Shown here: piece by piece, positions 25,949 to 50,633 of the stretch
Layout of the letters: each line of letters starts with the position of its first letter
Position numbering within the stretch: position 1 is the first letter of the stretch
From: Spironucleus salmonicida
Taxonomy: Eukaryota
NCBI RefSeq assembly: GCF_000497125.1
Contig: NC_090598.1
Location: forward strand, 496,001 to 560,000
DNA: 64,000 nucleotides
Direction: 5' to 3'
Program-made: the position numbers and the translations under genes
Notes under the pieces: generated by a model
The model's database searches: none
The model's input: the letters and a program-made list of their open reading frames with translations, nothing else
What the model was told of the DNA's origin: nothing

Positions 25949-26395
25949 ATGATAATAATTGAAATTTTAGATACAAGTATCATATAACTTATTCCAATGA
26001 AATAGTTAACTAATAACTCGTATTAAATTCATGAATTAACATATAAATATTATAATCAGCTATTAGCGAGCAATAGCTAAAAATATATTTATCTATTACA
26101 GTAGCCAAAACCATAAAACATCTATTATGAAATTATTTATAATTATTTTTCTAACTATGGATACCTTTTATCTTATGGATAATATGATATGGACTTTGCA
26201 GCCTATAATAAAACTGAAAAACATAGTCTTTTCCTTATCAAGATCTTACCGTCATCAAAAATTTCAACTACCATACTAACTACATATATGCGAGTGTCTT
26301 CTCAGGTCAAGAAATATCTTGTCTTAGCTTATATTTCTAAAGAAAAAGTTAATTTTGTCTCCTTAAAATACACCCCGCGCTCAGAACGTAAGTGA
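25949..26395 (+). CDS. tRNA-splicing endonuclease catalytic subunit (SEN2/SEN34/EndA-like; ~148 aa)
   Basis: YEIIYNYFSNYGYLLSYGQYDMDFAAY..EKHSLFLIKIL..YMRVSSQVKKYLVLAY resembles the EndA catalytic domain with candidate Y/H/K triad; ends AGTGA. Start uncertain. Confidence 0.78.
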
Positions 26396-26400
26396 CAAAA

Positions 26401-26694
26401 TCATTCATCAATCTCCTAAAGTAATGGTTCGTTTTCTATACCTTACTTTGGTTTTTTGAAGTAACAGAATATGCTAATTATAGCTATAACTGAAAAAATT
26501 ACACCAATTGATACACCTATTATTATATAAAGTGTGTTTAGTTTTTCAGTAATACATTGGCCATTGAAAATGTAGAATCCCGCCTCACACTGATTGCAAT
26601 CAGAATTTAATAATACAAAATGATCTTCACATTACTCACATACACTAGGGTCTAAAGGGTCACATTATTAACAGAATGAAACATTGCATGTCAT
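26401..26694 (-). CDS. Mini cysteine-rich membrane protein (97 aa)
   Basis: MTCNVSFCQQC...; 8-Cys module, TM, tail KKPKQGIENEPLLQEIDE*. Confidence 0.85.
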
Positions 26695-27001
26695 TTTTCT
26701 AATGTTAGTTATTAGCTATATATCCAAATATCATTTAATAATAATCATAATTTTACAACTAAATTTGATTTGATATCCTATAATTTGCAATTTTCAAAGT
26801 AGTTATATTCCTATATAATATAATTTAAGTATTATGAAATACTTTTTATAGTATTTTTTATATAAATCAAACACTTGGTTACGGTTCCTCTGCTTGATTA
26901 TAACTAAATCTTATTGTGTTATTTCTCATAGCTAATTAAGTTTCATTAACCAAAAGAAAAATAATATATAATTATTAGAAAGTTAAATTTTTAAAGAGTA
27001 T

Positions 27002-27319
27002 TCATTGTTGCTCTAATTATTTTTCTTGCAATAAAGGCTCCTTTTCGAGTTTAGACGCAGCGGATTATTTTTTACTTTTAACAATAACAAACGCCGCTAT
27101 AAATATAATTACTAAAAAGAAAACTACACCCATACTGATTCCAATAATGAGATCTTATTGTTCTTCTTTGATACTTACACATTCATTTTCTACAATCTCA
27201 TATCCGTCTTAGCAATCAGCACATTTATTATCTTTAAGATTAAAATGAGGATTGCAATTTTCACAAATCGAATTCACCTCATTAGTACAAGATTGGCAAT
27301 TTACTACATTGCAGGGCAT
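27002..27319 (-). CDS. Mini cysteine-rich membrane protein (105 aa)
   Basis: MPCNVVNCQSC...; same Cys spacing as its neighbour, TM, tail ...LEKEPLLQEKQLEQQ*. Confidence 0.85.
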
Positions 27320-27775
27320 TTTTAATAAAACATAAAGTATACACTATACTATAATATATACTATAAATCTATACTAAAATTAATTTCAGATAATTTTTAA
27401 TTAATCTCTACGTAAATAAAACTACTTCTAAATAGGTTAATATGTAAAAGTACATTTATTACTAATCCGGTACATTAAATTATATCTAAGGTTATAATGC
27501 GTAAGCTTAGACTATTTTAGTTTTAAACCTTGATATTAATAATTAGTATCATTTATATTTTTATTCTATCTAAGAAATTAAGATAACATATTTAATATAT
27601 GAAATTATTTAATTTATGTTATAGCTTATTTGTAGTTAGATTACTACTAAAACTAAATTTAAATGTAAAATATGATCGCTCTAAAGAGCACTACTACACT
27701 TTATCATAATAGCATCTCTTTATAAGAATAAATAAACTAAATTATTATTCTATTTTTAAATAAAACCGTATTATC

Positions 27776-27944
27776 ATACTCGCATCGAGGTAGAGGCCGC
27801 CTACCCTAGACTGCTCACCAATACCCAACGTCCCACTTTGCACCTTTACGACTCCAGAAGTCTGCATCGGCACCTCCGCCATGCACATATACCTTAACAT
27901 CGTTCAGCGCGCCCTTGCAGCAAAAGTCAATCCCGATTAGGTCA
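27776..27944. repeat. Inverted duplication, left copy (169 bp; partner 40719-40902)
   Basis: Reverse complement matches 40719-40902 apart from 4 substitutions and a 15-bp deletion. Confidence 0.95.
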
Positions 27945-30900
27945 CTTTGAATTTCGGTTTATTAAATTTACGCAACAAAGAAATAAATAAAGTGTTCTTA
28001 ACAGAAATCATCAGAATTATAATCTTCTAATATCAATTTGTCATTAATTTTTGCACCACGCAACCGATAGTCAAAATATCCTATTAGAAATGGTGGTGGG
28101 CCGTCTACGAATCCAAGTTTTCCATCACAATAAACTGGACTCTTCGTTGGTTTTATTACAGTACCACAAACTTTTAAATTGAGTGCACTGCACTTAAAAA
28201 TCATCTATGCATTGAAAATTTACAGGAAAAACAACATGTCACCAATTACATTATAAAAGCATATTCCACGCATACCAATTGCTTCGTTATGCATGAATAC
28301 AATTTATTCATTTATTTTCGTAAATTAATGCGCATTAAAATCTATTTTTTATAGTGAATTTTCTATGAATTTTTATAAAGGAAGTGGCACGAGATCATAA
28401 AATTTAAGATAATTAGTTACCACATTACTAGCTTATTATAAGCTTTCAGAGAAGATAAACCTAGCATCTTCAGGCATTAAATACGTTGTAAAGTCACGGA
28501 AAATTTGAATAAAATTATTAGGACTGAAAACATTAAATGGTTGATTTTACAAGCTTTCTGGACGCTCATTTTGAAGCTTAGAAAATTGTTAAAATTTGGC
28601 TATTATATCATGTAAAGTGAGCTTATCAGGCATGTCCATTAAAGTTTCAATTTCCTTATTATTTTTAATTTCTACTCCCTCTACGAAATTCGACATTGAT
28701 CTCACAAGTTCCTGTTAGCAACTCAAAAATTCATTTTTCTTGAATTTTATCATTAACATAAGAGTTTCAACCTAAAAGCATAATTCTTAATCCTGCACTT
28801 CTTCTAATCCTCTGCTCATCTTGATACTAAAATCCACACATATGAAAGTTAAAATACGTAAGACATCGCTAGTTAGTGCAGTTAGTGCAAGCTATTAGGT
28901 AAGTAATAACCCGCTGGATACCATCATAGCATGAGCGAAACATGCAACAATATCTTTTGGTCGTTCAACATAAACTATTTCTGGGTTGTAAATTGCTGTA
29001 AATTAAGATATTTAGAGTCCGCTTAAGGTGGAATTACCTGTATTTTTCTAATATTATATAGGTATCAAAACCCATAATAAATGAGATATCTCTACAGACT
29101 ATTATTTAATTTAGATAAGATAATCTAGTGCAGTTTTTACGTCGGCGGTAGCATCTACTAAAATCGAACTGATACTCAGTTAAATAGCACTTGGGGCGAT
29201 AGTTTTAACTACCGGTGCAAATTCAGTAATTTCAAGTTTATGAATCAAGTTTATTACTGTGGAAATAGCCAACCCTTCATCAAAGAAAATAAGCACTGTT
29301 TTACTCGTTTTTAATGAATTTCTGGCAGTTTAGGATAGAACTGATGGAAGATCAGAAAGAAAAGTTGGTGGGATTTGAAACTTATTTAAGAATTCCTCAT
29401 ACTTTATATATCTCTATTATTAGCTATGTTATAGGGCCTTGAAAGGCGAAATAGGAATTATCTCATGGTATCTCTGAAAAGTGTGTTAAATTGACTGCTT
29501 TTAGCATGTTATTGACAGCAACATGGCAGAAAAAATCGCTTCATTAGAAGGTTACTGTAGATTGTAAGGAAGTGAAATAGGAAGCTTTTACAGTGAATTG
29601 ATAAGGTCTATTGGGAAAAGCTCTACAGCTCTATTATGCATTTTATATATGTAACACCCTAAAATAGTATCAAAGCTTGACTTTGAGAGCATCAATTTTG
29701 CAAAAATTGAATGATTCTCATCGAAAAATTGAAACCATTCTTAGAAACGCTAAAATTCTAGCGAACAGCAGAAGTCTTTCCATGATTGATTTAGTGAAGA
29801 AACGGCTTCAAAAACTGGAGGTTTTATCTGATTTTCATGCAAGTTGAGCTTAGATAGTGCATCAGTGTCAGTTTCTTGCTGAACGAGTTTTGTAGTGTGG
29901 AAAACATGCTTCAAAATGAATTCGTCGTGAATGTTGGCAAAGCCAAAAGGAATAGAATAATACAAATAACAAATTAAAGTGTATGGAAGTTAATATTTTT
30001 CAGGCAACATAACTACAATTTTTTCTAAATAAAAAGACAAGCTATTTAAGATGAGTTCTAATTTCATATTTTTGGTATGTGAAATCTGCATCTTTTTGTC
30101 AATGAAATGTTTGAAATCAGTAGTGAAATTGTCCTGAAAAACTACGCTAAGTGGAGGATGAACCTTTTAAAGCTACGCAGTAAAGATTAGGACTGCAGTA
30201 AGACCTTGTGCAATGTAGTTTGTAAACTTTGTTGTCTGTTTGTTAATTTCCGATTGCTTGAAAACTTATATTCTCGATTCCATATTGTTCTCAATTCTTG
30301 TTATAATTAAATTAATTTACTACTGTTAATTGAGAGAAAATTTTGCCAAAAGATCAGTTTCAACTAAGATTTTCGAAAGGTCTACCATATCTTATTTATA
30401 TTCCAAAAATATCATCCTGAGTTATGAAAAAAGACACGATTCTCGCTCCTATGGTTAAAGCGAAAATCCCTACAAGTCCTTTGAGAGCTTATTCACGATT
30501 TCACGATGTGCTATTCGCCGCCCGGGCTTATTAAAAGTCTTCAAAATGTTCTAAAAAGTGTGAAATACATTGAATTGAGGTCTAACAACTATTGATGCGT
30601 CATTGAGCTACTAGTTTGCCAAACCTGAAGATACCAGATGCTCGAAATCGATCTATGAGTCCAATGAGTAGTAAAAACAATACCTATGAAGTGCCCGTGG
30701 AATCACCATTTTGAGCGTCCCTAGGTTTAGGTTTTGTCCCCGTTTTGTGATACGACTCTGCATCAAAAGTGAAATTTTCTTGAGCAAAACATTGTTCTCA
30801 GCAGGAGCCTCTCGTGCTGAAAAATTGATAAAAAGAACAGGAAGTTGTGCCTCGAGTGACGAGCGCAATGCAAGGCTGAACTTTTCCACTCCAAATAAGC

Positions 30901-33900
30901 AGTTCACAACACTAATATTTCCATCCCTTTTCCAGTATTTTTCACTCATTTCCACACATTACCTTACAATATCGAAATGAATAAACGAGAACTAGATCTT
31001 GAGCGCTTGGGATGCGATTAGACCTATAATTTCGTTCAAAAAATTCTCCTGCAGAAGCCCACTTTCAACAAAGTCCGAAAATTCGAAATTTGGTGCCAAA
31101 TCTTCTGCCAAAAGCCCCAAAAGCCGACTATTAAGTCCACTAATATTATTGTTGACATCGCTGATGAACTCGAATTTAGACTCAATTTCAGTAATTTCGA
31201 GGCCGCGCATCAAATTGTTCATCACAGAAACGCTATTTTCTGGAAGCGAGCAACATGTGATTTTTTCCATTTTCAGGGTTTCCTATAACGCTATTTCGAA
31301 CAACGTCTCGTTTTTCAGGTCAGACCTGACAAACGGGAAATAAATCAGTCGCGCCGCAATCATCACGCCGTCTATGGCAGCGTTCTTGATGAAGGTCACA
31401 GAGCGCTGCACGTCTGCCTAGAGCTTGGTATTCACATCTTTGAGCTTCTGCAAAAACTGCAAAGCCACCCCTTATTCCGATGGTGAATATCGCTTATTCT
31501 GCTCGATTTGCTGGATCGTATCAACGACTATAGTCACAGAATCCAAGAATCTGACTGCGTGCCGAATTCGCTTATTGACGATTTTGACAGCAATTTTGCC
31601 AAATCGATTCAGCGAAATCGCCATAAAATTGGACCCGCAGTGGTCGTTGCAAAATTGGAAAACTGCCAATAAGCCTTTGCAATAGATTTCAGTGTAGCTT
31701 TTGATCTGACTTTCACCTGATATAACGACGCCTGGAACCTTCAATTTTTTGATGTTAACGACAGGCACTTTGGTCATTTTGAAGAGGCTGTAGAGCTGCA
31801 AGCGGTCATTTTCACCCGCCAAAAATGCGTTCAGACGCTGCTCGACCACCGCATGTCGGCCTACTGGGTTGATTGGAATGCGCAAATTCGCAACAATTTG
31901 GAGGTCTGAAACAAGCGAAATACCGAACGAGCGGGACGCAATGCAAAGGACTTGGCGTACGCTGAAGGTGCCTTAAAACCCAAAATTTAGGGCTGCCAGT
32001 TTGCAGATAATCTGCAATTCCTACGCCGTAAAGAGATCGCAAATTGATGCCGCATTTTGAGCGATTTAGATTACCGAAACGAGTGTGGAAGCATCTGCAT
32101 TAGAGTACAATTATGAAAGCGGGGCTATGATAAGGACGTCGATTGGCTCTTGAAGAAGCGAAAATTAGAGTAAGTTTGCGAGTTGCGGATTTGCGTTGGT
32201 CTTTTTATATGAAGGCTATGCATTTTACTGAGAGTCTAAGTGTGGAATCGACTGTTCGATGACATTTTCGATGGATGGTAGGTCAGATGGGACCTAGAGT
32301 CCGGGTGTGATTTTAATATTTTCAGGCTACTTAAGGTCGATCAGGCCTAAAATAGGAGAAATTCCTAGCGCCTAACAAAATGCCGCACGTATCACATACC
32401 CAACTGCTTTTATCTCACCTTTTTCTTGTACACAATGGAATAGTGATTTTGTGAGCTAGTTATCAAATTTCTTCTTCCCTTAATGCTGCTTTTCAGATAA
32501 ATCTTTTGTGACAGACTGCAAAAGTGTCATAACATCTATTAACATACGGCGATGACGCCTTCCATGTATATTATGTTGATACTCATAATCTACAGTTGAT
32601 AATGTGCTGGCAGCAGATGACATCTGAGACGAAGAAGATGATATTGAACTTGAATTTGAAGAAGTCGCAGAACTTACATCAGTAGAAGATTCACCTAATG
32701 ACTCTTCATCTTCTAAGCGTTTTGAGTTAATTTAAGCAAAAAGCTTTTGATTAGAAATCATATAATTCCCCAGTGTCGCTAAAAGTTAAATTTAGTCATG
32801 ATAGTAACCAGAAGGCATCTAAAAAGAGTAAAAAATATAAGAAGGTATTCGAAATTAGTCTTCTAACGCAAAAATTTTATCAGGATTCCCAGATTTCAGT
32901 GCCTAAAAATAGTGATACAATGTGCGAGCGTTCCGCTCTAATTGTTATTACAAATTCAGGTGCATAACTAACATTCTGTTACACAAAGTTGGATCCATTT
33001 GTTTGCAGAATTAGTTAAACATAGCAACATAAAGTTTGAAAATAGCAGGGTCTACTGCATTTAGTTTTGAATTTAATACCATCTATTTTCGGAACTTTCC
33101 TTAAGCTTCCAGGATTTCAAGCTTGGGCTTTTCTTACTTTTTGGTATCTGATTTCTATACTTCAATTTCGAGCTCACTATCTTCTGAATCATCCTCTGTT
33201 TGGGTTTAAATAAATTTGTCTGCGTATTCTCGTGCAGTTTCAAGGACCTCAATTTCCCATTCAGTATACTGCGAAATTCGCATTTTTTAGAATTTTTCAG
33301 GTTCAGATTGTGCCAAGTGTATCATATATTCTGTATCTAAGCCACCCCAAAAAGAATTTTTGTCTAAAAGTTTGATACTGAGCGCTGTTTTTATCTCGTC
33401 CATAACACGCAAAAGATGATAGGATTATATCGATGGAAGTGATCTAAGGGCATTAAGAAATAGAGACAATCCAAAAGTCATCATTTATGTATCTTCTTTA
33501 GTAGTATAAATTGCACATTTACGCATTTCTGTGATAATTTCATAAAATGTACAAGGTAGGAGAGGTAAAAGCTTGCATAAACCCTTAATAAACTCTTAAA
33601 TGAAATAAAGCTCGAGCGTAGGATCTGCTACTTAAATTAATGTAATCATTTAATCCTCTTATATATCTTCTACACAAAAACAAAGCATTTGACTCTACGA
33701 TAAACTTGGAGGAACATTTGATGCTTCTATAATTATACTAAGTGCAGGTAAACTTGTCTTACCACTATATTTACTGTGATATAAGTTATCAAATTTGAGC
33801 TAGCCATACCCACTAGGATGTGCCAAAATTAATTTCTATCCGAGAAAATAACCATATTAGTCTAATTTGAGTGGTTTATCCATTACCTAATTCGTATCAC

Positions 33901-36900
33901 ACATAGTAATAATATATGTCTAGCAACGTTTTAAAGGTGAATAAATATTATTATCCGCCCTAGTAACGTTTCTTTACAATGTAGTATTAATAAACAGACT
34001 GAAATCTGAAATTGCAGCGAGTGCAAAATAATTTGATTCTATAAATCCAGGAACAAGCGATAATACTGCTTTGATAAGTGATGACTTTCCAGATTTATCT
34101 TTACCTACTATTGCAAAAGGAACACCGGCGAGAACAGCAGCACATAGGAATGGTATCCCCATTGACATTTTAGGAGATAAAGAAATAGGAAGCTCATAAT
34201 TAACGTCAGGATTAGTTAATTTAGCTATAAAAGGGTTCATAAGTAAATTTTCACCAAATTTAAAAATAGTCCAAATGAGAGAATCAGGCGGGGATAATCG
34301 AGATGATAATTTTTCTTATTCAGAAAAGTCATCAAGTGGTTACTCATCAATTTTATCTTCTAATTTTTTCTACAACTACTCGCCTTATACCAGACAAATA
34401 TAAGACATATGATTTTCTGGAAATGGAAAACTCTTTAAAAATTCGACAGTAAAAGGCTGAATTTATAGTTCTTTTTGGATGGCCTGATTTTCCGTAATTC
34501 CTGCAATGCACGCATCATATACATTTTTACACTGCTCATAATTCGAATTATTTGCCCATACCATAACAGGGAAAAATGCATTAATAACTCCAGCAAAGAC
34601 AGCTAATGTAAGTGAATTTGTTATTTTCTCTAATGATAATCTCGAATATAAAAAATCTGAATTAAAATTAAATTCATAGAACTGAAACCTATCATCGTTC
34701 ATTGTGAAACTGGGAATTTAATAGCTTGATAATGGAAATTCTATAACAGATTTGTCTGGAACTATATTTGAAATGATTTCTTTATATTGGAAGTCAGTAA
34801 GCTATGCTATACCAACTACGAAGTAAAATAGGGACAATAGACTTCTAAAAACTTTCCATGTTCTTAAATCTAGGTTGAGAGAAGAATTTTAATACGCAAT
34901 TTTGCTTAGATATATAGTAAGCTTGCGTACTAAGTTCATCCCAATGTCAATAAGCTATTAGTGATTAATTTTTTCCTAAGCTTATTCATTTGTGTCAACT
35001 TAACTTATCTATGCCAAGTATTTTATATAGTCATCGCTATTTGTATAATTAAATTATGTGTATTGTTGTAATTTAAAAAATTAACTTTGCAATTTAAGAG
35101 GCCTGTAAATGAACTGATCTAGCAAATAATCTACATTATACATATTTTAATCAAAAATAATTCTTCTTTATATGAGACTCAAAGGAGTATCCTGAATATC
35201 AATATTCACCATTGAATTGATTAAACAAATAATTTTTGGTTTTTTTTCAATATTAATAAAACGTCCATCTGAGAGTTAAATTGCTTACTTATAACAATGA
35301 AAATTAACTAAATTTTTGAATAAACTTTTAGCCATATCCCCTTAAATATCTTGAAATACAAAAATCAGAACACACTCTGTTGTAGCTGATAATATATCTT
35401 TATAACACATATCAATATCAGCCTATGAAAATATCCAAAAAGGTTACCATTTATTCTAAGTATAAAGTTTTTGAATAAATAAACTTGCCATCTATTATGC
35501 TTTGCTAATAACTGCCACACTACCTAAACGTGTATAAAATTATAGTAATTCATAACTAAAGCAGCCAGTTTCACTAAGATCAGAGTGCTACTTTACCTCT
35601 TTAAAATCTTTAAAAGAATATTAAGTATCCTCTATTTGAACACCAAATGCACTACTTACTAAAATAGAATAACTAGCTTTCAAATCATCACTTTCACATT
35701 GCATTTATAAAAAGCAAATGGTAGATTTTGCAACAGAAGTTTCGTTTTTATCCTAAATTCTAGCTAGAATGAAAGAAATATCCTATATTTATAAGCATGG
35801 ACAGTTCATACCAGTTAGGCAGCAAATTATAAAGTTAAAAGCTTCTCCATAAGTTTTAGCTGCTTATGTTACCATATCTTTAATAGGTTATGGCACATTG
35901 ATTTTAATTGATTCAGTAAAAATAGTACAAATTTTATTGGTTTAATCTGTATTTTAAAGGTCATTAGAAACATTAATAGCTTATGTTGGCAAGAAAATTA
36001 CAATAGAACCTTGAGAAGTTGCGAAAGGCTTAGAACCATTCTTTAACAGCTAAGACACAAATTGCATCTCCACTGCTTACTCTTTTCTTAAAAATTCACA
36101 TCCAGCTATATAAATTATATAATTTTAATTTAAAAATAATGTTAAAGTTGTATTTATGAAGACAACACTATCAAACTCAGAAAATGTAAGAGTAATAAAT
36201 TTTTACCCTAAAAACCTACTAATACACCTAGTTATTAATGCAAATTCTTTCACATCATACTTAAATATTCGATCTGTCTATATGAGTATCATAGTTTTTG
36301 TTTTCATAGCGCAAATAAATTTTTCAGTTATCTCTAACTTAAAAGCAGGGATTTCGTAAGTTTCTTCTGGTTTTGCATCACCTAACCAGTGAATTTATTC
36401 AAAAAATATTTTTTATAAAAATTTCGACGTTGATCCATATGATTTTTCGAATGGTAAATGTGAGGATATGTTTTCATTAAATCTTGATGTTAATGCTTAT
36501 TTTGTTAAGTTATCTCTATTAGAATTTGGAAGCAGAGCTAATAATTTTTTAATTTAGTCTTTATGTAAAAATATTACAGTATGCACAATAGTCTAATACG
36601 GAATTTTACTAATATACTCCTCATATTTTCCATCAGAAAGTAACTATTACGCTCTTTTTTTCTAGGAAATTAAATTTAATGACATAATATCATCTGTTAT
36701 CTTGATTACAGGTTCATTGAGCATTAGCTATTCCTGACCTTATTATAATCCTGTGATACACTAATTATCATCGATGATTTATGGTGTAAAATATTCTAAA
36801 TGATCTCCATTTAATACAGAATCGTAGTCTATTTCTTCTAAAGCTGGATAAAAAATCTCGTCAATATTTTCTAAAGTTGTATTTAGCTTAAATATAAGTT

Positions 36901-39900
36901 GCTAATGTTGTTAAATTACGGAAAACATAGTTTTAGCTTAAAGGAATTATGACTGTATTTTAATTACATCCAAAAAATCATCTTAAAGTTTTTTGATTGT
37001 AACCTAAAATAACATACTCTATGACTTAGATTTACAAAGCATAATAATATTATGACTTCTAATTAATACCATACTCAAACTTAATAATTATTAAAGTGTG
37101 TGCTCTATTTGTCTAGACTATTTAGTGACCTAGCTATTTGGGTTACATCCAATAATTTACTAAACACGATACAATTTTTCATTACAATAATTTTCTATAA
37201 TAGTTTTAGGCATTATAAATTTAATTGATTTAAATTTATCATTTTAAGAAATTGAAGGCGAAAGAAAAACTAAATTTTAATTTATAACTACAATTTCAGC
37301 TTAACTAATATAAAGGGAAATATCATTTAATTCTAATGAATAATTATAATTAGATAAATCTCCTTAATAAAGCTAAAGTAGATAGTCAAGTCTATACTTC
37401 TGCTAATTGCTATCGTTAGAAATATATTTAGCACAATTTATCAACCTGTCAGCCCCTATTTGAAAACCGATAGTTTAGGACATTGAATTAAATGTTTACT
37501 GTGATAGAAATTACTTCTTTAAAATATCTAAATATAAAATCTTAGGCATCATGTTTATAATTTTTTATTCATATAAATTGGAATATTATCTCCATGATTC
37601 ATATTTTTCTTACTCTTTTATTATTTTTATTGACTTACAAATTTCTTCTCCTGCTTCTAATAGTCGGTAGGTATCGACATTTGATAAATTTTCTGATAAA
37701 CAATTCTCAAAATCCTTGTTGAATACTTTAAATCCTAATAGAATTCTAATAATAGGCTCAATTTCATTTCTAATTTTCTTTGGATGCAACACTAAAAAAC
37801 ATTCTACCCCTAAAACCTGGCTCCAACGCTCTAATAAATCTGATATTTTGCTAGTCAAATCTAATAACCATATTATCTCTTGAAACACTTTATCTAGATC
37901 AATTGGTTAATCTCTAATATAACATTAGTCTTTTATTTTGAATAAGTCTACACCGCAACCATTGATAACACCCTATATAAATAGATCTGTGTCAACTCCT
38001 TTTTGTTCGAAAAAGTCTTCCACTTAATCATAAGTAATATTTGTACATATCCAGCGATATTTTCGCTTAAAAAATGTTTCATTTCTGTCTTCCAAAACAT
38101 CATTTGTTAGCATCAAAACATCTTTGATGATCAAATCAACTTAGCTGATGTAAAAATGTACTAAATCTGCCAAATTTAATGTAAATTTGCTAAAAATTCG
38201 CTACTTAACTGAGAATTAATTCTGAAGCTAGACTTTTTTACGCTTTAGGTCTATAAGTGCTTGGTAAATTGCAGCAAAATCAAATTCCTCCTAATATATA
38301 TAAGAATCAGTATTTTCCATCACCAAATTAAAAAGCTAGTTAGTTTTTATTAGTTCTTCTACGATGAAATCATCTACTACTGTCAGTTCTGCTATAACTG
38401 CAACAAGAATATCTGGTGTCTAAGGATCCTGTGCTAGTAATTGAGTCGATTTTTGAATTCCAATGTAAATTTACTCCATTTTTTCCATGATAACATTATT
38501 GTTTTATTGATAAAGTTACTATTACTTCGCCTTCAAATCAGCCTTTTACTTCTCAATAATGACTCCAAAATCGAATTCAACGCAGTAACATGCAACAATT
38601 CTCTCAACTTTGCCAATAAGAATCAAAATGTGGTCAAAGTCATCAAATTTCACAATATTTGCAATCTAATTTTCAATTACCAATAACTATCCAATAACTA
38701 AATTAAACTTATCATCAATTTTGTCCTTAAGCTTAAAAAATCGATCATCCTAAAAGTCATAGGTTATGCCGAATGACAAAAAGTCATTTTCATCCTGAAA
38801 ATCATTTATTTTATCATTCTCGATAAGCGAGTAAATACCATAATATTCAGCAGTTAAAAGTATTTTTTAAATATTATTGAATTTTTTGTCTAAAATATCC
38901 ATCAAGTCTTGATTTTAACACAAAATTCCTGCTTTTAGTTTGTCCTGAATAATATCATTTTGCAGTAGATGAAATACATGGGGGATATAAAAAGGCAACT
39001 AAAATCGTTAAATAAGCTATTAAACTATATCTGAATAAATTTTATCTATATCATGATCAAGGCTGTTTATCGTAATTTTTAGCTACATAAATTTTTATGG
39101 AGAATTGAAAAAGCTAATCATGCATTCCTAAAAGAAGAGTGAAAATTCATTTCTAGTGATATTAATCATTACACGATATAATTGTAACATTGCATTAAAA
39201 TCTAGTTAATACGTTTATACTAAACTTTCCATATTTTTACGGATTTTAAATGCTAAATAATCTTAACTGCAGAAATCGTCTGCGAAACCGTTGACAGATA
39301 GAAACAATGAAAGGTCTTCGCTAATAACTTCAGAATTATCAGTTATTGAAATAATATCCAGAAAATCATAAATATCGTATTTTATCTTTAGAAATATTTC
39401 ATTAAAGTCACATTTTAGTATATCAATTTTTTGATGTTGAATGTGTGGTTCCTGTATGAAAAACCCTAATTTAACTAAATTTCTACCCTCTTCAGATGTC
39501 ACATTTTGGCTATTAAGTGCTAAACATTTTTCCGTAAAAATACGACGCATTTCGGCTATTAATGAGGTTAACAACTTTTAATCAAACCTATATTTTTTGA
39601 TAATGTTAGACAGACGAAATGCTGAGTCAGGAATAGAAATAAGATACTAATTTAGCGTGCTCGAAGGTAGAACCTATGTTCGTAATGACTAAAGAGAAAC
39701 AAATTCTGTAAATTTATAAGTAAGAGTTTAGTATGTTATTTTTGCCGTTCGTTTAAGGAAATTAATATAATCAACAGTCACAGGAATTGTGAATGTCGGT
39801 GTATAATAATAAAGGTATTTAGCTGAAGAATTATCATTCAATTAAAATGGGATATTTTCGTAATTTTATGTTGGAGATTCCTTAAGTTAATCTAATATTG

Positions 39901-39922
39901 CCGGAGGCTATTTAAGTGGCAT
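27815..39922 (-). CDS. Highly divergent dynein heavy chain-like protein (~4035 aa)
   Basis: Nine supplied ORF fragments over 12 kb share one frame with ATG 39922 and TGA 27815 (not every codon checked). AAA3-like VPFAIVGKDKSGKS..IIYSPLKR..IITMCDTN, AAA1/AAA4-like remnants, and a C-terminal FWSRKGA resembling the dynein W..RG end motif. Confidence 0.75.
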
Positions 39923-40193
39923 TTTTATTAAAAATAAAATCTATAATTTTTATATTATAATAAATATATTATCCAAATTTTCAGGACATTAATAATACTA
40001 TATTATATTAAAACAGGCATACTTATGTTTATGTTATTCCGTACTTAATTAATTCTATTCCATTACGATTTTATTAAACATATTTATTTTTAGCTTAAGT
40101 GTTAATCAAAAAATTAATACAATTGGCAAAAAGAATTGTATACTCACTTATTATATAATACATATACTTATAAGAATTTTCTCACTTTATATT

Positions 40194-40502
40194 ATGTCTT
40201 GTCAAATAGAAAATTGCTAAACTTGTGAGGATCTCAATGTTTGCACCTAATGTCAAGTTGAATATCTATTAATGGATAACAAGTGTTAGGACTGTTCGGA
40301 AGGATATAGATTTAGTCAAGGTCATTTATGTGTTAAAATTGAAAAAGCCGACCAGCTTATTGGTATTCTTTCTGCAGGTGTTATTGCCGTTATTATAATT
40401 ATTGCAGGAATAATTATATCTTTCAGATTAATTTAGAAGAAAAAAGCAGATAAGGAAAGATAACCATTGGTTGATGCTGAGTAGTAAAATGAACTGATCT
40501 GA
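40194..40502 (+). CDS. Mini cysteine-rich membrane protein (102 aa)
   Basis: MSCQIENCQTC...; 8-Cys module, TM, tail KKKADKERQPLVDAE...*. Confidence 0.85.
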
Positions 40503-40718
40503 TTTTAAACAGTTAGCTGGATTTAATTAACAGGTAAAAATATATTATATAATATTCACTACGTAAGAATATATCATTTTATTATTTAATATTTTTATTT
40601 GCAAGAAAGCCTTAACTCCACTATCAACGTATAATTCATAACCTTCAATATTCTAATAATATGCATTCTTTACTTAAAATATACTGATATACTGTAAAAT
40701 AATATAAGTAGCATATAT

Positions 40719-40848
40719 TGATCTGATCGGGATTGACTTTTGCTGCAAGGGCGCGCTGAACGATGTTAAGGTATATGTGCATGGCGGAGGTGCCGATGCA
40801 GACTTCTGGAGTCGTAAAGGTGCAAAGTGGGACGTTGGGTATTGGTGA
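40719..40848 (+). pseudogene. Orphan 3' fragment of the dynein-like gene
   Basis: Reads DLIGIDFCCKGALNDVKVYVHGGGADADFWSRKGAKWDVGYW*, the same as the dynein C-terminus; no in-frame ATG after the previous TGA. Confidence 0.85.
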
Positions 40849-40902
40849 TCAGTCTAGGGCAGGCGGCCTCTAACGTATTGCGCGCTACCTCGATGCGAGT
40901 AT
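40719..40902. repeat. Inverted duplication, right copy (184 bp; partner 27776-27944)
   Basis: Direct sequence match. Contains an ATG-less copy of the last ~42 dynein codons abutting the stop of the 40849-41286 gene. Confidence 0.95.
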
Positions 40903-41286
40903 ACTTAGTGGAGTTCTTGTCAGCTGTGGAAATAGTTGAGGGATACTCTAGGTTGAAGTAGTGGCAAATTCACCAACGGGTACATACTTCCGTTTGTATG
41001 AGGTCTTAAGTTCGAGGACTTCACGCTGAAGCCGGTCCCGTGCACAATTCTTCTTGACCAGAAATTTATATACCCCATGCTCATATGCCTTAACTTGATC
41101 AAAAACTCGTTCTTCGACGGTGCGCTCGTCTGTAAACTTATACTGAGGGATAGAGCGCTAGTACAGTTAAGAGGTAATATCGTAGTCTTTAAATAGTGCC
41201 TGAGAGTCAAGGTACTTCTTGTCCATGTTGAAAGCGAGTTCGAACTTCCGGCTATTCTGGTCGTCACCCTTCTCGTAGTCCTACAT
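40849..41286 (-). CDS. Hypothetical protein (145 aa)
   Basis: Code-6 ORF MQDYEKGDDQNSRKFELAF...RQRPPALD* with GC-richer, coding-like codon usage. Confidence 0.7.
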
Positions 41287-41610
41287 TTGGAAAGGGTACG
41301 ATTTTTTGCTAGTGAAGTGAATCGAATAATAACTTGTTTTGCTTAGTTTTTCTGATTTCAAGCTATCAGGAATATATTAATTTCGCTAAACACTTAATAT
41401 TATTATAAAGTTCTAGTTTAAAAATACATATTATAGTTCTTTTGCTTTAACTATCACTACATATTATTTATAAAAATTTTAGATTTAGTATAATATTATG
41501 TTCTCAATATGATTTAGTTAAAAGACCTTTTTAGAGAAAATTATTCACTATGATATTTCACACTAAATACTACAAAAATATCTAAATTACTAAATTATTT
41601 AACTTCATTC

Positions 41611-42939
41611 TCACTAATTCATAATTTTGCCCATTTCGCTCATTTGTACCACGTAGCCTTTTAGTAGTTCATTTGCTAAATCCACCAACTTTTTCTACGA
41701 AGTTACACAGTTATTTTTGACTCCACCAATTTGATCCCGAAGCTCTTAAACTTGAATTTTTAGTTCTTCAAGTTTGTCACTTGATTAGCATACTTCGTCG
41801 TCAATAAAAATTTATTCTTTTTTCAGCTGCCCATAGACCTCATTGAAGTCATTTCTAGCGGAAACTTCAAGAAACTACTTGTCTTTTTAGCCAATCTCCG
41901 CGGTTTGCTACTTTACAACTAAAATAAATTTTTCCACGTCCGATTTTTCTTCTAAAAGTGCAGCAAAATTACTTTATGCTTCGCCTAAAATTTCTTGAAG
42001 TTGGCCCAATTAACTGTTTTGGAATAGCGATTTTTCAGTAAATTCTTCTAAAGTTTCCAAGTCTTGCATCAATTGACTTTGTTTGAGAATGTGCTGTTAA
42101 GCTTCCAAAATTGCTTTTTATAATTCATCTCTTCGTGGTTGAATTTGTTCCATTTCGCTCATCATCTACGTTAGTTCTTAGGTAATTCTTAAAGGGGCAT
42201 CTGGCGCAATAATTTTTTGCTGTTATTGCTATATGCTGGATCGTAAATTTTGGTTTATATTTTCTAGATTATGAGATTCTCTAACTTTTGACTGTTGTTA
42301 GCTTTTTAATTATTAAAGCTAGGTTAGGTGTGATTTTAGTTCATTTAACAGTTTTTATAAGTTATATTTCTTTTCCTAAAAACATTTAGAGAAATCTGTT
42401 ATTTAAGATTTAAATTGGCTATGATTTCCAGCAATCTCTTAATATTCTTATTGTTTTTCCTTTAGCGATAAGTAAAAAATAGACAAATTATCTTTATTAG
42501 CTTAAAACTTTGAAACTAAATCTGAAATAATTTCACAAAGCATAGATTTGAATCTTAAAAAATTAGTTAGTGCTGAAAAAAATAAGGTAAACCTCTTTTT
42601 ATTGGGGGTTGTAAGATCTGATAAAGTAAAGTCATTTACTTAACAATTTTTAAACAAATCTCTAAGTTGAACATATAGCGTTAGAAGAGGTAGCGAGTTA
42701 GAATGAACATCTTAAGTTGATATTCTGAATACATTATTTATTTTGTCTTAGTTTAAAAGTTAAATTTCTGCAACAGGACGCAATTCACAGGATTCTACAA
42801 AGAATGAATATATTTGTTTTATTTTATCTGGATTTGGTTTATCTAGATCTTGTTTTGTTAGTTAAAAATCTGCCTCTCGTAATATTGATAAAATTTCAAC
42901 TTCCGATAGTAATGGGAAAGACAAAGTTGGCTTTTACAT
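41611..42939 (-). CDS. NUF2: Kinetochore protein Nuf2 (442 aa)
   Basis: SFPLLSEVEI..LTKQDLDKPNP..IY and CQVNDFTLSDLTTPNKKRFTLFFSALTNFLRF match the Nuf2 CH domain, followed by a long coiled coil; ends AGTGA. Confidence 0.88.
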
Positions 42940-43081
42940 TTTTAGGTTGTTTAAAAAATTTGCTCATATTATTGTATATAATTAATATAGTTTTCATATT
43001 AAATTAAGTAATATATAATTAAATATATTTAAAAACTTTATTAGAGATTATTTTAATTTTCGTCTTCCACTCCATGCGAGA

Positions 43082-43564
43082 ATGACTCATTCCAAGGGTT
43101 TCCGCTGCAAAACTAGAATGGTTTTCGCTCGTGCTTTCCGTTAGCATGGCGTACCTGCTCCATCCATCAACCTTGTGTAGTACAAGCGCGGTGACTACGT
43201 TGACATCCTCGTCAACGGTGCTATCCACAAAGGCATGCCTCATCGTTACTACCATGGTAAGACCGGTAAGGTCTTCAATGTGAATCCCCATTCTATCGGT
43301 GTTGAGTTCAACAAGAAGGTAGGCCCCAGATTCGTCAAAAAGTATATTCACGTCCGTGTTGAGCACATCCGCCCCTCTGCTTCCAACGCTGCACATATCG
43401 GCCGTGTTAAAGTTAATGATGAGCAGACCAAGCTCTATAAGGCTGGTAAGTCTGAATGGAAGTGCCTCAAGCGCATACCTGAATAGCCTCTTGCTGCCCA
43501 GATTCTCATTAAGCCAACCGTTGTTGATATCGCCCCCGTTCCTTACAAGGGAATTATCGTCTGA
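43082..43564 (+). CDS. RPL21: 60S ribosomal protein eL21 (160 aa)
   Basis: MTHSKGFRCKTR..GDYVDI..IHKGMPHRYYHGKTGKVFNV..HVRVEHIRPS. Confidence 0.97.
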
Positions 43565-45511
43565 TTAAATTTTGGTGCTTTGTTATCTATATACACTGTA
43601 TTTTGTGTTCATAGCGAACAATAAATGTTATTTACAAAATCGAATATTTTGCATTATATATTGCAAATATATTTTATCTCACACAAATGGCAGACGAAGA
43701 CGGCTACTCCAATTACTCTGCTTCTACGGCCTCCACATCAAACCAGCGTACACTCAATCCCACCTACTTTGAGATTATCGAATTGCCCCCAAAGTAGATC
43801 ACCAATCTGTATTTTGCAAGACTGTTTCCAGCATACTTCCTGCTAACGTTCACTCTTACTTTCGAAATCAGCATATGTGCTGGTTATGGGGGTATTAATA
43901 CAATATACGGTATGGCGATTCTTTAACCGGCTATTTTGTTCTTCAACTATTCTTTCCACTCGTCCACAGCCAGGGCTGGTATGCCACTGGTTGCAAAGGC
44001 CCTCGCCGCTGATTAATACTCTGTATCAGTCCATACTATGATGAGTTTGTATCTTATTTTCATGTTTGGGGTAATACTATGCGTGGGCCTTTACTTTGGA
44101 TTCATGAATCAAATGGTGACACAATTTGAGACTATGTATTATGTTATGGCACTTTTATTAGGTAGTATATTTTCCGCTTTCTAGGTTACTATGTCGGCTT
44201 TCTTTATGGTGGAGAATCGCGGTGGTATTATGTTCTGCCGGGACTTTATCGGTCTGTGTCTTCGAACCACCGTTTTGATAGTAGTCTATAACATAGAGAA
44301 CAACCTCAACCATGATTAAAAGCCGAGTCTTCTTAGCCCTGGCATTGCTCAGCTGATTAGTTACATTGTGCTATGTATTATTTCGTTTGTTGCTGCTACT
44401 TAGTTCGACACATTTGACCTTCAGTTTTCTGGGATTCTAAAGTTCTCACTCAAAAAGATCAACCCGATCCGGCCTCGCGTTATCATTAAATTATTCTTAA
44501 ACTTCCTCCCTGCTCTTGGATGTAATGCTACAGATTTTGTAGCGCTACTCCTAGCTAATTATTTCATAATTTTTTCTATCGATACTGAGTAGGAAAAGAT
44601 TATTCGGATTATCTAAAACAGCATATTCTGTACATTTGCCTTTATTTGCATAAAACTGAACACTATTATATCTGAAACTTATATCGCTTTAGCGTCAACA
44701 AATTTCGGCGTTAAGAAAATATCCAGAGTATATGCTATTTTCAAGCATGCTGCAGTTATGGGTGCCACTATATCTCTTTTTATGTCGGTTATTGTCGTGG
44801 TTTTAGGAAGATTTCTCATATAAGTTTTCTTTAGAAAACTTGATGATTTCATGTATATCGAAGATTTAATTACAAGATGTCAAGATGCTATGATGTATGC
44901 TGGAATCTATGGGTTTTAACGTATTATCTCTGGACTAGGAATCAGTGCTATTGTCGTTGAGGGCCTGGTCAAGCAGCAACTAGTAATTGTACTACCGCGG
45001 CTATGCACAATCATTGGAGGTGTAGTATCTTGCCACTATCTACTAGGGTCGATGGCTAATTATCCGATGATAATATGCATAGGAGAGATATCAGGAGTTG
45101 CTGCAGGGATTCCAACAGTGGTATGGTTCTGGATAAAATATAAACAAGTAGCTTCCACGGATGCTAAAGTAATCAAGGAAGAGGAGCAACTAACAAATAA
45201 TGAAATGGTGCAGAATATCAGAATCACGATAGCTGAAAGCATCAATGCAGAGGAAGAGGACGAGGAGATGCTGAAAGCAAAACAAGGCACAATTACTGGC
45301 GTCGCTAATAAGCAGCTGCTTTTACGGGAGAGTTTGGGGTTCCGTAGTCTCGCAAGCACAGTAGACCGTCAGAGTGCTGTGCTCGAGGAGTGAACGCGGA
45401 TGTAGTAATACGATATGCAGTTAACACTAAGTGTATGAACATATTACTTCCAATATAAGATCTTTCTGGTAGAAGTATTTAAATCGAATATATTCGCTTA
45501 ACTACTAATTT
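43162..45511. repeat. Long inverted repeat, arm 1 (2350 bp; partner 48214-50563)
   Basis: Paired coordinates sum to 93725; mirrored identical ORFs in the track; no mismatch found in spot checks. Confidence 0.95.
43687..45393 (+). CDS. Divergent MATE-like multi-pass transporter, copy 1 (568 aa)
   Basis: Many hydrophobic helices; GINTIYGMAILQP..ARAGMPLVAKALAADQ resembles the MATE TM2 'G...LISQALGA' motif; acidic C-tail; ends AGTGA. Confidence 0.75.
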
Positions 45512-45543: not shown

Positions 45544-48198
45544 TCATTATTTATTACTTTTTTTTCGTTCTATAAGCCATTTTCTAACATCATCATCACA
45601 ATATCTTCTGAAGCAAATAACTTTAAAACTAAGCATATCTCCGCCATCTGCTTTAATTTTCAGATCTTTCGTATGCAAATTATGTAAGGAAAGTATATCA
45701 ACAATCTATTTAAAGGTATCATTTAGAAAATCATCATCGGTATACTTTCCAAATTATGTAAGTGCATACATAAAGTCTGTAGATAGTATATCATAGTCTT
45801 CCTTTCCTATACTTCTTGCCCTTAGACCAGAATCTGTTAATAATTGGTAATAATATCGCTAAAATTAAATTAACATTTATTAAATTAAGAAAATATTGAC
45901 TTATATTATAGAGGATTTATGTATAATTTCAAATTAGTTAGTTAACAAGTTAACAATATCTACAAGCTACTTTGTTGATGCTACTGGGCAATAAACTTAC
46001 TACCAAATAAATATTATTTCTTGCATAAAATACTAAGAATAATCCGACGATAATATTTTTTTTGAATTTTATAATTATTCTTATATTCTTTATTTAAAAT
46101 CAGTAAACTAATCTAAAGCTTAATTTTACAAACCATTTCTTAAAAGCAACGTGTAGCCATCATTAACATCATTACCAACAGATGCAAATAATAGCTCTAT
46201 TTCAGATTATAACTTAACTAAGGAATTCATTCTCATGATAACAGTTCTTAAATTTTGATTTGCTGACTGACTTCTTTAAAATTAATTAGTCTTTTCTTTC
46301 ACAATCGAATTATACTCTTCTATATTTTAATTATAGATAGCCGCCAGCCCTGGATTTTATATTTTTGACGGATCAAAGAGAATTTTCCCCTTCCATTTTT
46401 TCTAAATAGATTTTCCATCATTAAAATCTGATTCTTCGAGATCTACCAATTAATGTTATTTATTGAAGATAACAAATATTTGCTTTATTTAACTAAGTAA
46501 ACCTGAAAATAATAATTAATATGAATCAATATTAATATTAAATTTCCCAATAATTTCAGAAAATACAGTACTTATTAAAGTAATAGAATCAGCAACAAAA
46601 GATGAGATAACAACTTCTTTTTTTTAATCTTAAATAATGAATTCATCTTCTTTATTTGTGCTGATAATATGTTGTATGTGATCAAATTCAGCTTAAATTA
46701 TAGTAGAAATTAAAGGATATGTTAATTATAATAAAATTGCCTTATCAAAATAATCTTATACCTTTGATGAAAATTTAATAAAAATTTACTAAATTAATTA
46801 TAATATTTCTTACAAGCTTTGAATATTTACTCTAAAAAGTATACCATTTTCAATAAACCAATTTTACTTAATCAATATTAACGAATCGTATAATAATTTA
46901 ATAATCGATCCTGAAAAAGCTGTATAACAGGATATAATCTGCTGACCTTATGGCTATGTTTCGGATGTTGTCCCTACAAAATTTACATCTGACAAATTAA
47001 ACTATGAATTAATATTAAACACACCACATAATCTAGATTAACTATGGAAATTATTTATAACTGGTAAAAATATATCAATTTATGGTTGAATTTCTAAATA
47101 AAACTTCTTCAGAAACTCTTTAAACACTAAAACTGCGCCTTATTTAGATGAATTATGATTAAATTCTTAAGAGATTAGTTAAAATTATTTAATAACTGAC
47201 GATACAATAAGTTTTTCTAATCGGACATCAAAATTTTTCTTATTTTATATCTAGGTATGAAAAAATCTTAAAATTTCCAAAAATGGATGAAAATTTTTAA
47301 AATCTAGGCAAAATTGCTATACATAGTTCTAAGAAACTAGATTAAGCTAGCTTTTTAATAACTATATCATATCTTATCTAAAATATAATTATTATTACAA
47401 CTAGAAAGATAAAATTTACAGTTATTCGTTTTTTACTATATCTTCTATATTTAAAATTAGTGATGAACTAAAAATATGATTCTATTTTAAATGTACAAAG
47501 AATAATTTTGCCATAATTTGATCTATTTAAAGTGATTAACTTTTTTCTATAAATGGCCTAAGGAAGTATTTCGCAACAAGTAGTTCAAAATATTCAGGTA
47601 ATATTAGTTATAGGGATAACTCTGATATAATATGTTCTGATTTTGAGACAGATAGCTTGAATTCTTCGTCATCTTATGAATAATTAAGATATTTTTCATT
47701 AAACTTTAGTAATTGATTTAGTTATTCATTGTCTTGTTTACTGCAGTTTAAACAAAAATTAACTAAATAACAATATTTATACCTTGTGAAAACAGATAAT
47801 GGCAATATATTTGATATTTCATTGAGTCTATTATCTTAAAATATTTACTTACCTTCTTGGTATATTGAATTGGGAATTTAATATTAGACACGAAATGTAG
47901 ATAATAGTTTTATAAAATTCGGTAACAATTCTAATTATTTTAAACAATAATCTCCAGCCAACTGTGCAATAATACTTTCATCATAATCAATTTAAGACAA
48001 ATCTTTAACTATTTCTATTTAACAAGACTATTATTCAATATTGTCAGGTAAATTAATAACTTTTAATTCCGGATTGTCTAATTATTCTATAAGATACTAT
48101 AAATCTAATTAGATTAAAGTATCAAATCTAATTGGTGATAGCTTTTGAAAATTTTTATGCAAAAATCTATACAATAATTCTTTTTGAATAATGTTCAT
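45544..48198 (-). CDS. Large hypothetical, probably alpha-helical protein (884 aa)
   Basis: Frame scanned free of TGA from MNIIQKELL to WLIERKKSNKQ*; fills the spacer between the inverted repeat arms. Confidence 0.75.
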
Positions 48199-48331
48199 GT
48201 AGTAAAAGAAAGGAAATTAGTAGTTAAGCGAATATATTCGATTTAAATACTTCTACCAGAAAGATCTTATATTGGAAGTAATATGTTCATACACTTAGTG
48301 TTAACTGCATATCGTATTACTACATCCGCGT

Positions 48332-50038
48332 TCACTCCTCGAGCACAGCACTCTGACGGTCTACTGTGCTTGCGAGACTACGGAACCCCAAACTCTCCCG
48401 TAAAAGCAGCTGCTTATTAGCGACGCCAGTAATTGTGCCTTGTTTTGCTTTCAGCATCTCCTCGTCCTCTTCCTCTGCATTGATGCTTTCAGCTATCGTG
48501 ATTCTGATATTCTGCACCATTTCATTATTTGTTAGTTGCTCCTCTTCCTTGATTACTTTAGCATCCGTGGAAGCTACTTGTTTATATTTTATCCAGAACC
48601 ATACCACTGTTGGAATCCCTGCAGCAACTCCTGATATCTCTCCTATGCATATTATCATCGGATAATTAGCCATCGACCCTAGTAGATAGTGGCAAGATAC
48701 TACACCTCCAATGATTGTGCATAGCCGCGGTAGTACAATTACTAGTTGCTGCTTGACCAGGCCCTCAACGACAATAGCACTGATTCCTAGTCCAGAGATA
48801 ATACGTTAAAACCCATAGATTCCAGCATACATCATAGCATCTTGACATCTTGTAATTAAATCTTCGATATACATGAAATCATCAAGTTTTCTAAAGAAAA
48901 CTTATATGAGAAATCTTCCTAAAACCACGACAATAACCGACATAAAAAGAGATATAGTGGCACCCATAACTGCAGCATGCTTGAAAATAGCATATACTCT
49001 GGATATTTTCTTAACGCCGAAATTTGTTGACGCTAAAGCGATATAAGTTTCAGATATAATAGTGTTCAGTTTTATGCAAATAAAGGCAAATGTACAGAAT
49101 ATGCTGTTTTAGATAATCCGAATAATCTTTTCCTACTCAGTATCGATAGAAAAAATTATGAAATAATTAGCTAGGAGTAGCGCTACAAAATCTGTAGCAT
49201 TACATCCAAGAGCAGGGAGGAAGTTTAAGAATAATTTAATGATAACGCGAGGCCGGATCGGGTTGATCTTTTTGAGTGAGAACTTTAGAATCCCAGAAAA
49301 CTGAAGGTCAAATGTGTCGAACTAAGTAGCAGCAACAAACGAAATAATACATAGCACAATGTAACTAATCAGCTGAGCAATGCCAGGGCTAAGAAGACTC
49401 GGCTTTTAATCATGGTTGAGGTTGTTCTCTATGTTATAGACTACTATCAAAACGGTGGTTCGAAGACACAGACCGATAAAGTCCCGGCAGAACATAATAC
49501 CACCGCGATTCTCCACCATAAAGAAAGCCGACATAGTAACCTAGAAAGCGGAAAATATACTACCTAATAAAAGTGCCATAACATAATACATAGTCTCAAA
49601 TTGTGTCACCATTTGATTCATGAATCCAAAGTAAAGGCCCACGCATAGTATTACCCCAAACATGAAAATAAGATACAAACTCATCATAGTATGGACTGAT
49701 ACAGAGTATTAATCAGCGGCGAGGGCCTTTGCAACCAGTGGCATACCAGCCCTGGCTGTGGACGAGTGGAAAGAATAGTTGAAGAACAAAATAGCCGGTT
49801 AAAGAATCGCCATACCGTATATTGTATTAATACCCCCATAACCAGCACATATGCTGATTTCGAAAGTAAGAGTGAACGTTAGCAGGAAGTATGCTGGAAA
49901 CAGTCTTGCAAAATACAGATTGGTGATCTACTTTGGGGGCAATTCGATAATCTCAAAGTAGGTGGGATTGAGTGTACGCTGGTTTGATGTGGAGGCCGTA
50001 GAAGCAGAGTAATTGGAGTAGCCGTCTTCGTCTGCCAT
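48332..50038 (-). CDS. Divergent MATE-like transporter, copy 2
   Basis: Complete inverted copy of 43687-45393. Confidence 0.75.
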
Positions 50039-50160
50039 TTGTGTGAGATAAAATATATTTGCAATATATAATGCAAAATATTCGATTTTGTAAATAACAT
50101 TTATTGTTCGCTATGAACACAAAATACAGTGTATATAGATAACAAAGCACCAAAATTTAA

Positions 50161-50563
50161 TCAGACGATAATTCCCTTGTAAGGAACGGGGGCGATATCA
50201 ACAACGGTTGGCTTAATGAGAATCTGGGCAGCAAGAGGCTATTCAGGTATGCGCTTGAGGCACTTCCATTCAGACTTACCAGCCTTATAGAGCTTGGTCT
50301 GCTCATCATTAACTTTAACACGGCCGATATGTGCAGCGTTGGAAGCAGAGGGGCGGATGTGCTCAACACGGACGTGAATATACTTTTTGACGAATCTGGG
50401 GCCTACCTTCTTGTTGAACTCAACACCGATAGAATGGGGATTCACATTGAAGACCTTACCGGTCTTACCATGGTAGTAACGATGAGGCATGCCTTTGTGG
50501 ATAGCACCGTTGACGAGGATGTCAACGTAGTCACCGCGCTTGTACTACACAAGGTTGATGGAT
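50161..50563 (-). pseudogene. RPL21: 5'-truncated RPL21 copy
   Basis: Matches 43162-43564 but lacks the ATG and the first ~27 codons; the adjacent upstream ATG is out of frame. Confidence 0.88.
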
Positions 50564-50633
50564 ACATCAATGATAAATTAATAAATATTTTACTATAATT
50601 TAGCATAATTCGAAATAATACATTAAATATGAA

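Follow-up and report, generated by a model that had tools for sequence, protein, structure and literature searches.

A probable small inversion with a duplicated breakpoint at a giant dynein-like gene of Spironucleus salmonicida

In Drosophila, 17 of 29 inversions analysed by Ranz et al. in 2007 carry inverted duplications at their breakpoints, which that study explains by staggered breaks, fill-in, and end joining (PMC1885836). The duplicated stretches have a median length of 321 bp, the shortest measuring 46 bp and the longest about 1.9 kb, and in 12 of the inversions a single breakpoint region is duplicated (PMC1885836). A second described system is that of recurrent polymorphic inversions in humans (PMC3961182), where the block is flanked by inverted repeats that were already present as segmental duplications or mobile elements and that usually measure kilobases. 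Here, we describe a block of about 12.9 kb (27776-40718) in a 64,000-nucleotide (nt) stretch of the genome of Spironucleus salmonicida (contig NC_090598.1, positions 496,001 to 560,000, forward strand; hereafter the window, whose own numbering is used throughout). The block holds a giant, dynein-like gene, and is bracketed by inverted copies of a short segment, composed of the 3′ ends of that gene and of a convergent gene of 145 amino acids (aa). Its best explanation, which we regard as probable, is a recent inversion whose one duplicated breakpoint stems from a staggered break.

The likeness to the fly inversions is close: the ends of the block carry inverted duplicates of sequence that is otherwise unique and mostly genic, a single breakpoint region is duplicated, its 184 bp fall within the range of 46 bp to about 1.9 kb, and the spare copies decay through substitutions and small deletions (PMC1885836). 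The differences lie in the host, a diplomonad-type protist with a compact genome; in the very small size of the inversion (about 13 kb); and in the duplicated piece spanning the abutting stops of a convergent gene pair, with the duplication keeping both genes whole. In the Drosophila report, moreover, polarity comes from species comparisons and the copies share a mean identity of ~88% (PMC1885836), whereas here polarity comes from parsimony within one sequence and the copies are 97-98% identical (1-2% divergence). With the recurrent human inversions, the locus shares inverted repeats flanking a block that could in principle flip without change of gene content (PMC3961182); unlike the human repeats, these are 169-184 nt of unique gene ends, whose content records a former adjacency. 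No publication on inversion breakpoints in diplomonads was found, and the Spironucleus papers listed for inverted repeats, judged by titles and the opening of abstracts, are concerned with other topics. If confirmed, this would be a very clean and young case of a breakpoint-copying inversion, in a lineage far from the flies in which the mechanism was worked out, and would illustrate a way for a very compact genome to withstand breakage within a convergent pair with touching stops.

The inverted repeat and the gene ends it carries

The original prediction, made from the letters of the window, had placed inverted copies at 27776-27944 and 40719-40902, and these are borne out base for base. A repeat search over 26000-42500 returned an inverted pair at 27791-27944 and 40719-40872, 154 nt long, 97% complementary, and 12,774 nt apart, and self-blastn of the entire window recovered the same pair at an expectation value (E) of 1.1e-69, with no third copy of the segment in the 64 kb. 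Alignment and a base-by-base script carry the homology across a 15-bp in-frame indel as far as 27776 and 40902, giving the full copies, the left at 27776-27944 and the right, inverted, at 40719-40902. In the right copy the region of the indel reads AGG TAG (CGC GCA ATA CGT TAG) AGG, the five codons in brackets being absent from the left copy, and the indel thus sits between two TAG triplets (CTA on the other strand). Four substitutions separate the copies, at 27803 (A/G), 27814 (C/A), 27938 (T/C), and 27941 (G/A), and between them extends an identical core of 123 nt, 27815-27937 on the left and 40726-40848 on the right. Each of the four lies no more than 39 nt from the left new junction or no more than 7 nt from the right one, with none in the 123-nt centre.

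The two genes meet at 40846-40851 in the right copy, where their stops abut as TGA|TCA, the touching convergent stops that had already been read off the sequence. The left counterpart, at 27812-27817, is TGC|TCA, the substitution at 27814 having put TGC in the left copy where the right has the stop TGA. Each copy accordingly holds one live gene end and one dead one. On the left, the live C-terminal tail of the giant gene (27815-27944, minus strand) comprises its last 43 codons and stop, and beside it lies a remnant of the 145-aa gene's final codons (27776-27814, plus strand), which retains 13 of 18 codons, reads ILASRQRPPTLDC, and is damaged in three ways: TGC (Cys) replaces the stop, five codons are missing, and one further codon is replaced. 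The changed stop and the 15-bp deletion between CTA microrepeats had both been noted in the original prediction, and both are confirmed. On the right, it is the end of the 145-aa gene that is live, over 18 codons including the stop (40849-40902, minus strand), and it is accompanied by an orphan copy of the dynein-like tail (40719-40848, plus strand) that lacks the upstream body of the gene, the homology ending at 40719. Reading in frame through this orphan and back to the previous TGA at 40495, a span of 117 codons, reveals no ATG, and the orphan's two differences from the live tail are both synonymous and situated at the inner edge. The division of the right copy into a live end and an orphan tail, as originally proposed, therefore stands. 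The spare halves are dead, non-coding relics, and both are easily mis-annotated.

The 145-aa gene itself (40849-41286, minus strand) is a GC-rich ORF (open reading frame), with a GC content at third codon positions (GC3) of 0.50. Its protein found only itself in the protein collection and no Pfam family at E<=1, and a single-sequence model reached a pLDDT (predicted local distance difference test score) of 47. Contigs of two sequencing runs, X5 and X6, which are taken for RNA by guess only, cover 40726-41260 and 40726-41270; they stop at 41260 and 41270, within the first nine codons from the ATG at 41286, and continue into adapter. The true start may be the next in-frame methionine, at residue 21, for which the contig ends are weak evidence.

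Copy number was read from short-read contigs (Logan, k=31) of two DNA runs, X1 and X2, mapped to 26801-41800; both are possibly the source runs of the assembly itself, and hence not independent of strain. The core appears as a separate contig of 123 nt, at a depth of 356 in X1 and 26.3 in X2, compared with 180.9 and 14.3 for the single contig of the block (27908-40755), and 160.6 and 10.4 for that of the right flank (40819-41800). The resulting ratios of core to block, 1.97 in X1 and 1.84 in X2, identify a two-copy segment and not a dispersed repeat. The block contig has 30 nt of core at each end, and three of the four core junctions lie within short-read contigs, namely both inner ones (27908-40755) and the right outer one (40819-41800). 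X1 and X2 give no cover over 26801-27814, nor do the contigs of X5 and X6 over about 34300-39800, and nothing is inferred from these gaps.

These counts bear on the idea that the segment is dispersed, as a repeat or a mobile element, and brackets the block by coincidence; the original prediction had named a dispersed multicopy repeat among the outcomes that would count against it. We give it next to no credence: the segment is present twice by depth, without a third copy in the window, and is built from the ends of two genes, one of them encoding part of a protein domain that distant relatives conserve. No evidence in its support was found.

The giant gene and its native C-terminus

The giant gene occupies 27815-40081 on the minus strand, and is a highly divergent, dynein-heavy-chain-like ORF of 4088 codons when read with genetic code table 6, in which TAA and TAG specify glutamine. 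It contains 148 TAA and 81 TAG codons in frame (229 in total) and a single TGA, which is terminal; from base composition, the chance of a TGA-free run of this length is ~ e^-79.

The protein has a length similar to that of dynein heavy chains, yet lacks a ring of six AAA+ modules detectable with Pfam. Pfam yielded no family at E<=0.01 and, even at E<=10, neither a dynein nor an AAA family, in a search that very divergent modules could escape, and the only families listed were DUF4867, DUF4125, and SR-25, at E values of 0.03-3.6. No chain in the PDB matched, either at E<=1 with phmmer or at E<=10 in a profile search. A regular expression found one Walker-A-like motif, at residue 1993, in a search that would miss degenerate sites. 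Because AAA modules were sought and not found, the giant protein is not classed as a dynein heavy chain.

What the inversion reading needs from this gene is the identity of its 3′ end, on which the relatives are informative. A HMMER search of 1.84 billion representatives with the last 1200 residues gave 22 relatives at E<=0.001, most of them short fragments, as expected from gene calling with the standard code. Three of the 22 (P0008, P0010, and P0011) span the C-terminal part together with the body upstream of the repeat boundary, and two of these, P0010 and P0011, extend to the end of the query, finishing ...GYF where the query finishes ...GYW. An alignment of the 1200-aa query with 23 fragments, of 7% mean column identity, was dropped.

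An AlphaFold2 model of the last 250 residues, built from a six-sequence alignment, has a mean pLDDT of 63 and a predicted template modelling score (pTM) of 0.67, and shows a beta-rich C-terminal domain that includes the tail. The Foldseek matches listed for it are dynein heavy chains only, at E values of 0.004-0.14 and none at E<=0.001. Residues 22-248 of the model align to 4411-4645 of the 4646-residue human dynein-1 heavy chain with a Z of 10.1 and a root-mean-square deviation of 3.2 Å over 134 aligned residues (VIA-align). In a structure search independent of Foldseek, only 2 of 48,161 chains reached Z>=5, both of them dynein motor domains (Z 9.7 and 8.9), followed by dynein-2 at 3.9 and then by the first unrelated chain at 3.5. 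The C-terminal 230 residues thus share the fold of the dynein C-terminal domain end to end, with a structural Z of 9.7-10.1 to dynein-1, 7.3 to Dyh3 of Tetrahymena, and 3.7-3.9 to dynein-2. The label "dynein-like", which the original prediction had attached to the gene, is supported by the fold of the modelled C-terminal domain, and not by sequence, where Pfam and the PDB gave no match. The giant protein natively ends in the 43 residues that the left repeat copy encodes: the placing of the live C-terminus in that copy, proposed from the start, is upheld both by metagenomic relatives that carry the tail joined to the body, and by the fold.

The tail is also compositionally distinct, with a GC content of 0.53 compared with 0.29 in the adjoining 600 nt, and a GC3 of 0.53 compared with a gene mean of 0.29. 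GC-biased conversion was considered as a source of this and not adopted, the unduplicated part of the 145-aa gene being equally GC-rich (GC3 0.50), and the composition of the tail need not stem from duplication.

The giant ORF has no exact counterpart in the public protein collection, where no protein of 30-7154 aa covers its last 400-700 residues. A word-based protein search returned one weak match, a protein of 5911 aa without Pfam domains, and none among shorter proteins. Several genes of the neighbourhood, namely the two small membrane protein genes c1 and c3, a Nuf2-family gene, and genes of 884 aa and 568 aa (all described below), are present in that collection exactly as called here, and the giant gene may be either unannotated or differently annotated there.

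Reversal of the block and how it may have turned

Three genes for small cysteine-rich membrane proteins (mini-CRMPs) help to follow the order of the locus: c1 (26401-26694, minus strand) and c2 (27002-27319, minus strand), to the left of the block, and c3 (40194-40502, plus strand), within it and divergent from the start of the giant gene. The block was flipped in silico by replacing 27776-40718 with the reverse complement of 27945-40718, which shortens the window by 169 nt. In this form the giant ORF converges on the 145-aa gene and encodes 4088 aa with no residue difference, and c3 lies on the minus strand, 672 nt from c2. The claim that flipping would restore a convergent pair is therefore sustained, with an identical 4088-aa product. 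As both gene ends are joined at the same base in each copy, one locus must once have held the two genes end to end, and the two repeat copies bracket exactly the block that now separates them. The most parsimonious account is an inversion with one duplicated breakpoint, which covers all of this in a single event.

Such an inversion may have proceeded as follows. In the ancestral state, the giant gene would have lain on the plus strand, converging on the 145-aa gene with abutting stops (TGA|TCA), and c3 would have adjoined c1 and c2. A first break would have fallen in the AT-rich spacer between c2 and c3, while the second would have been staggered, its strands cut 184 nt apart, at points 130 nt within the giant gene and 54 nt within the 145-aa gene, each counted from the gene's end. 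Filling in the overhangs and joining the ends would then have turned the block round and left the 184-nt segment inverted at both of its ends, each gene keeping a complete 3′ end in its own downstream context and the spare halves becoming the non-coding relics. As the 184-nt stagger would extend across the abutting stops, neither gene would lose any of its end, and they would keep no less than 39 and 130 nt of the sequence that natively follows them. For S. salmonicida, an overlap between the polyadenylation signal and the TGA has been reported, with the poly(A) tail starting about 14 bp downstream (PMC3916229). In such a setting, a full 3′ end with native downstream bases for each gene may matter, and the duplication would presumably have been needed for the inversion to be tolerated. 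The two copies, the native tail, the dead relics, and the behaviour of the flipped block all came out as the original prediction of a staggered-break inversion implied, whereas the ancestral order, the stagger, and a sole, fixed orientation are, like the single event and the recency, parts of the reading that we infer.

At the new junctions, 27775|27776 and 40718|40719, neither microhomology nor inserted or templated filler is evident. This bears on a different origin, in which no staggered cuts would have been made and a template switch during replication (fork stalling or microhomology-mediated break-induced replication) would have yielded both the inversion and the inverted duplication at once. 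Replication-based template switching can also leave inverted duplications at its joints, and the 15-bp indel between 3-nt TAG repeats shows that events of the microhomology type occur at this locus; with clean junctions on both sides, we nevertheless regard such a switch as quite improbable here, while noting that, judged from the sequence alone, it is inseparable from staggered breaks.

Several observations weigh against a simple inversion by staggered breaks. The ancestral order is inferred from parsimony. The prediction that flipping would set the mini-CRMPs in tandem holds in that c3 comes to lie beside c2 on the same strand; as an argument for the former order, however, the restored tandem is only suggestive, given a fourth paralogue at 51495-51983, outside the block. 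Contigs built with k=31 are unable to orient a block between repeats longer than k, and the present orientation therefore rests on the window's own assembly. Furthermore, X5 and X6 each have one contig (2/2) that passes from the 145-aa gene across the core into the 3′ part of the giant gene, running from 41260/41270 to 40726 on the minus strand and from 27938 to 28176/28330 on the plus strand; the un-inverted order has this junction. The joint (27938/40726) was not accepted as proof of the other orientation, as an assembler with k=31 can walk between transcripts through the 123-nt core; it may be such a path, or real, and keeps alive the idea that both orientations exist. Finally, all four substitutions between the copies fall outside the core (P about 0.005 under even placement), which suggests gene conversion between the copies. 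Its 1-2% divergence may then understate the age of the repeat, whose arms could conceivably undergo exchange; if conversion is acting, the low divergence is not usable as a clock. The confinement of the substitutions to the edges also fits mutagenic end processing while the junctions formed.

The contigs and the core would also fit a two-step, or flip-flop, history. In that case, an inverted 184-nt copy would first have arisen in the c2/c3 spacer, and homologous exchange within the 123-nt core would later have turned the block; both orientations might coexist in the population or among chromosome copies, with both genes intact either way. The end structure would be the same as that left by one step, the perfect core with all four substitutions at its edges is as expected from conversion or exchange between arms, the junction that belongs to the other orientation occurs in contigs of X5 and X6, and the flipped form encodes an identical protein. 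We think it unlikely, though not far-fetched: it calls for one event more, the contigs are explicable by an assembler path in runs whose nature is guessed, and 123 nt of identity is a short substrate for homologous exchange. A distinctly unlikely extension is that the block is at present a live invertible segment, its core kept identical by exchange between the arms, and its two orientations coexisting among chromosome copies or cells. If true, the joining contigs would be real, and the breakpoint duplication would have created a neutral flip-flop in a diplomonad.

The same contigs could instead reflect an error in the source assembly, with the block mis-oriented or its left junction mis-joined, since orientation and the left outer junction are taken from the window itself, and X5 and X6 show the other junction. 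The duplication is independent of orientation, the core having double depth and both ends of the block abutting it in short-read contigs, and the length of the source contig (1,815,816 nt) suggests a long-read, chromosome-scale assembly, whose reads would far exceed a 184-nt repeat. We consider such an error very improbable. Scans of metagenomes for the same locus in a relative matched 364 stretches with an alignment query and 38 with the protein P0011 as query, none of which was confirmed.

Neighbouring genes and further duplications

The three mini-CRMPs that the original prediction had located at 26401-27319 and 40194-40502 are evident from the translations, each having an ectodomain rich in CxxC and CxC motifs, one C-terminal membrane span, and a short tail, which we take to be the short form of the Spironucleus CRMP family. 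Pfam gave only sub-threshold hints of Furin-like_2 and VSP. The c1 protein (97 aa) has CxxC motifs and is 41% identical to c2 (105 aa), whose gene is covered over 26998-27304 by a contig of X5. For c3 (102 aa), the best paralogue in the window is c2 (37%), with the fourth mini-CRMP (51495-51983, plus strand) nearly as close at 34%; this last is 25-34% identical to c1-c3.

Both putative new junctions are reached from AT-rich intergenic DNA, in a window with a GC content of 0.32: on the left, 27320-27775 (GC 0.18) ends at 27775|27776, and on the right, 40503-40718 (GC 0.20) ends at 40718|40719. The overall GC content, the genetic code, and the CRMP-like genes agree with published accounts of S. 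salmonicida (PMC3916229; PMC9509377). No transfer RNA gene was found at the breakpoints, and the tandem repeats there are trivial AT-rich ones only. Beyond the 145-aa gene lies the Nuf2-family gene (41611-42939, minus strand).

The window also contains a larger inverted repeat, at 43162-45511 and 48214-50563, whose arms of 2350 nt are 100% identical and bracket 2702 nt with the 884-aa gene (45544-48198, minus strand). GC content is 0.31-0.49 in the arms and 0.21-0.29 inside. Each arm carries a complete ORF for a multi-span membrane protein of 568 aa (43687-45393, plus strand, and 48332-50038, minus strand), and the outer ends of the arms cut two further ORFs (42896-43654, minus strand, and 50071-50754, plus strand) that have their first 164 codons in common. 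This repeat may be a bigger instance of the same type of event; alternatively, conversion may have maintained the identity of a segmental inverted duplication.

A direct duplication of about 1.6 kb, at 6418-8004 and 12851-14440, is 93.7% identical, and involves two genes for large cysteine-rich membrane proteins, of 411 aa (6240-7475, minus strand) and 426 aa (12631-13911, minus strand), the N-terminal halves of which are identical. Lastly, a tandem array at 55933-56432, with a period of 81 nt and about six copies of 97-99% identity, lies inside overlapping long ORFs (55181-57293).

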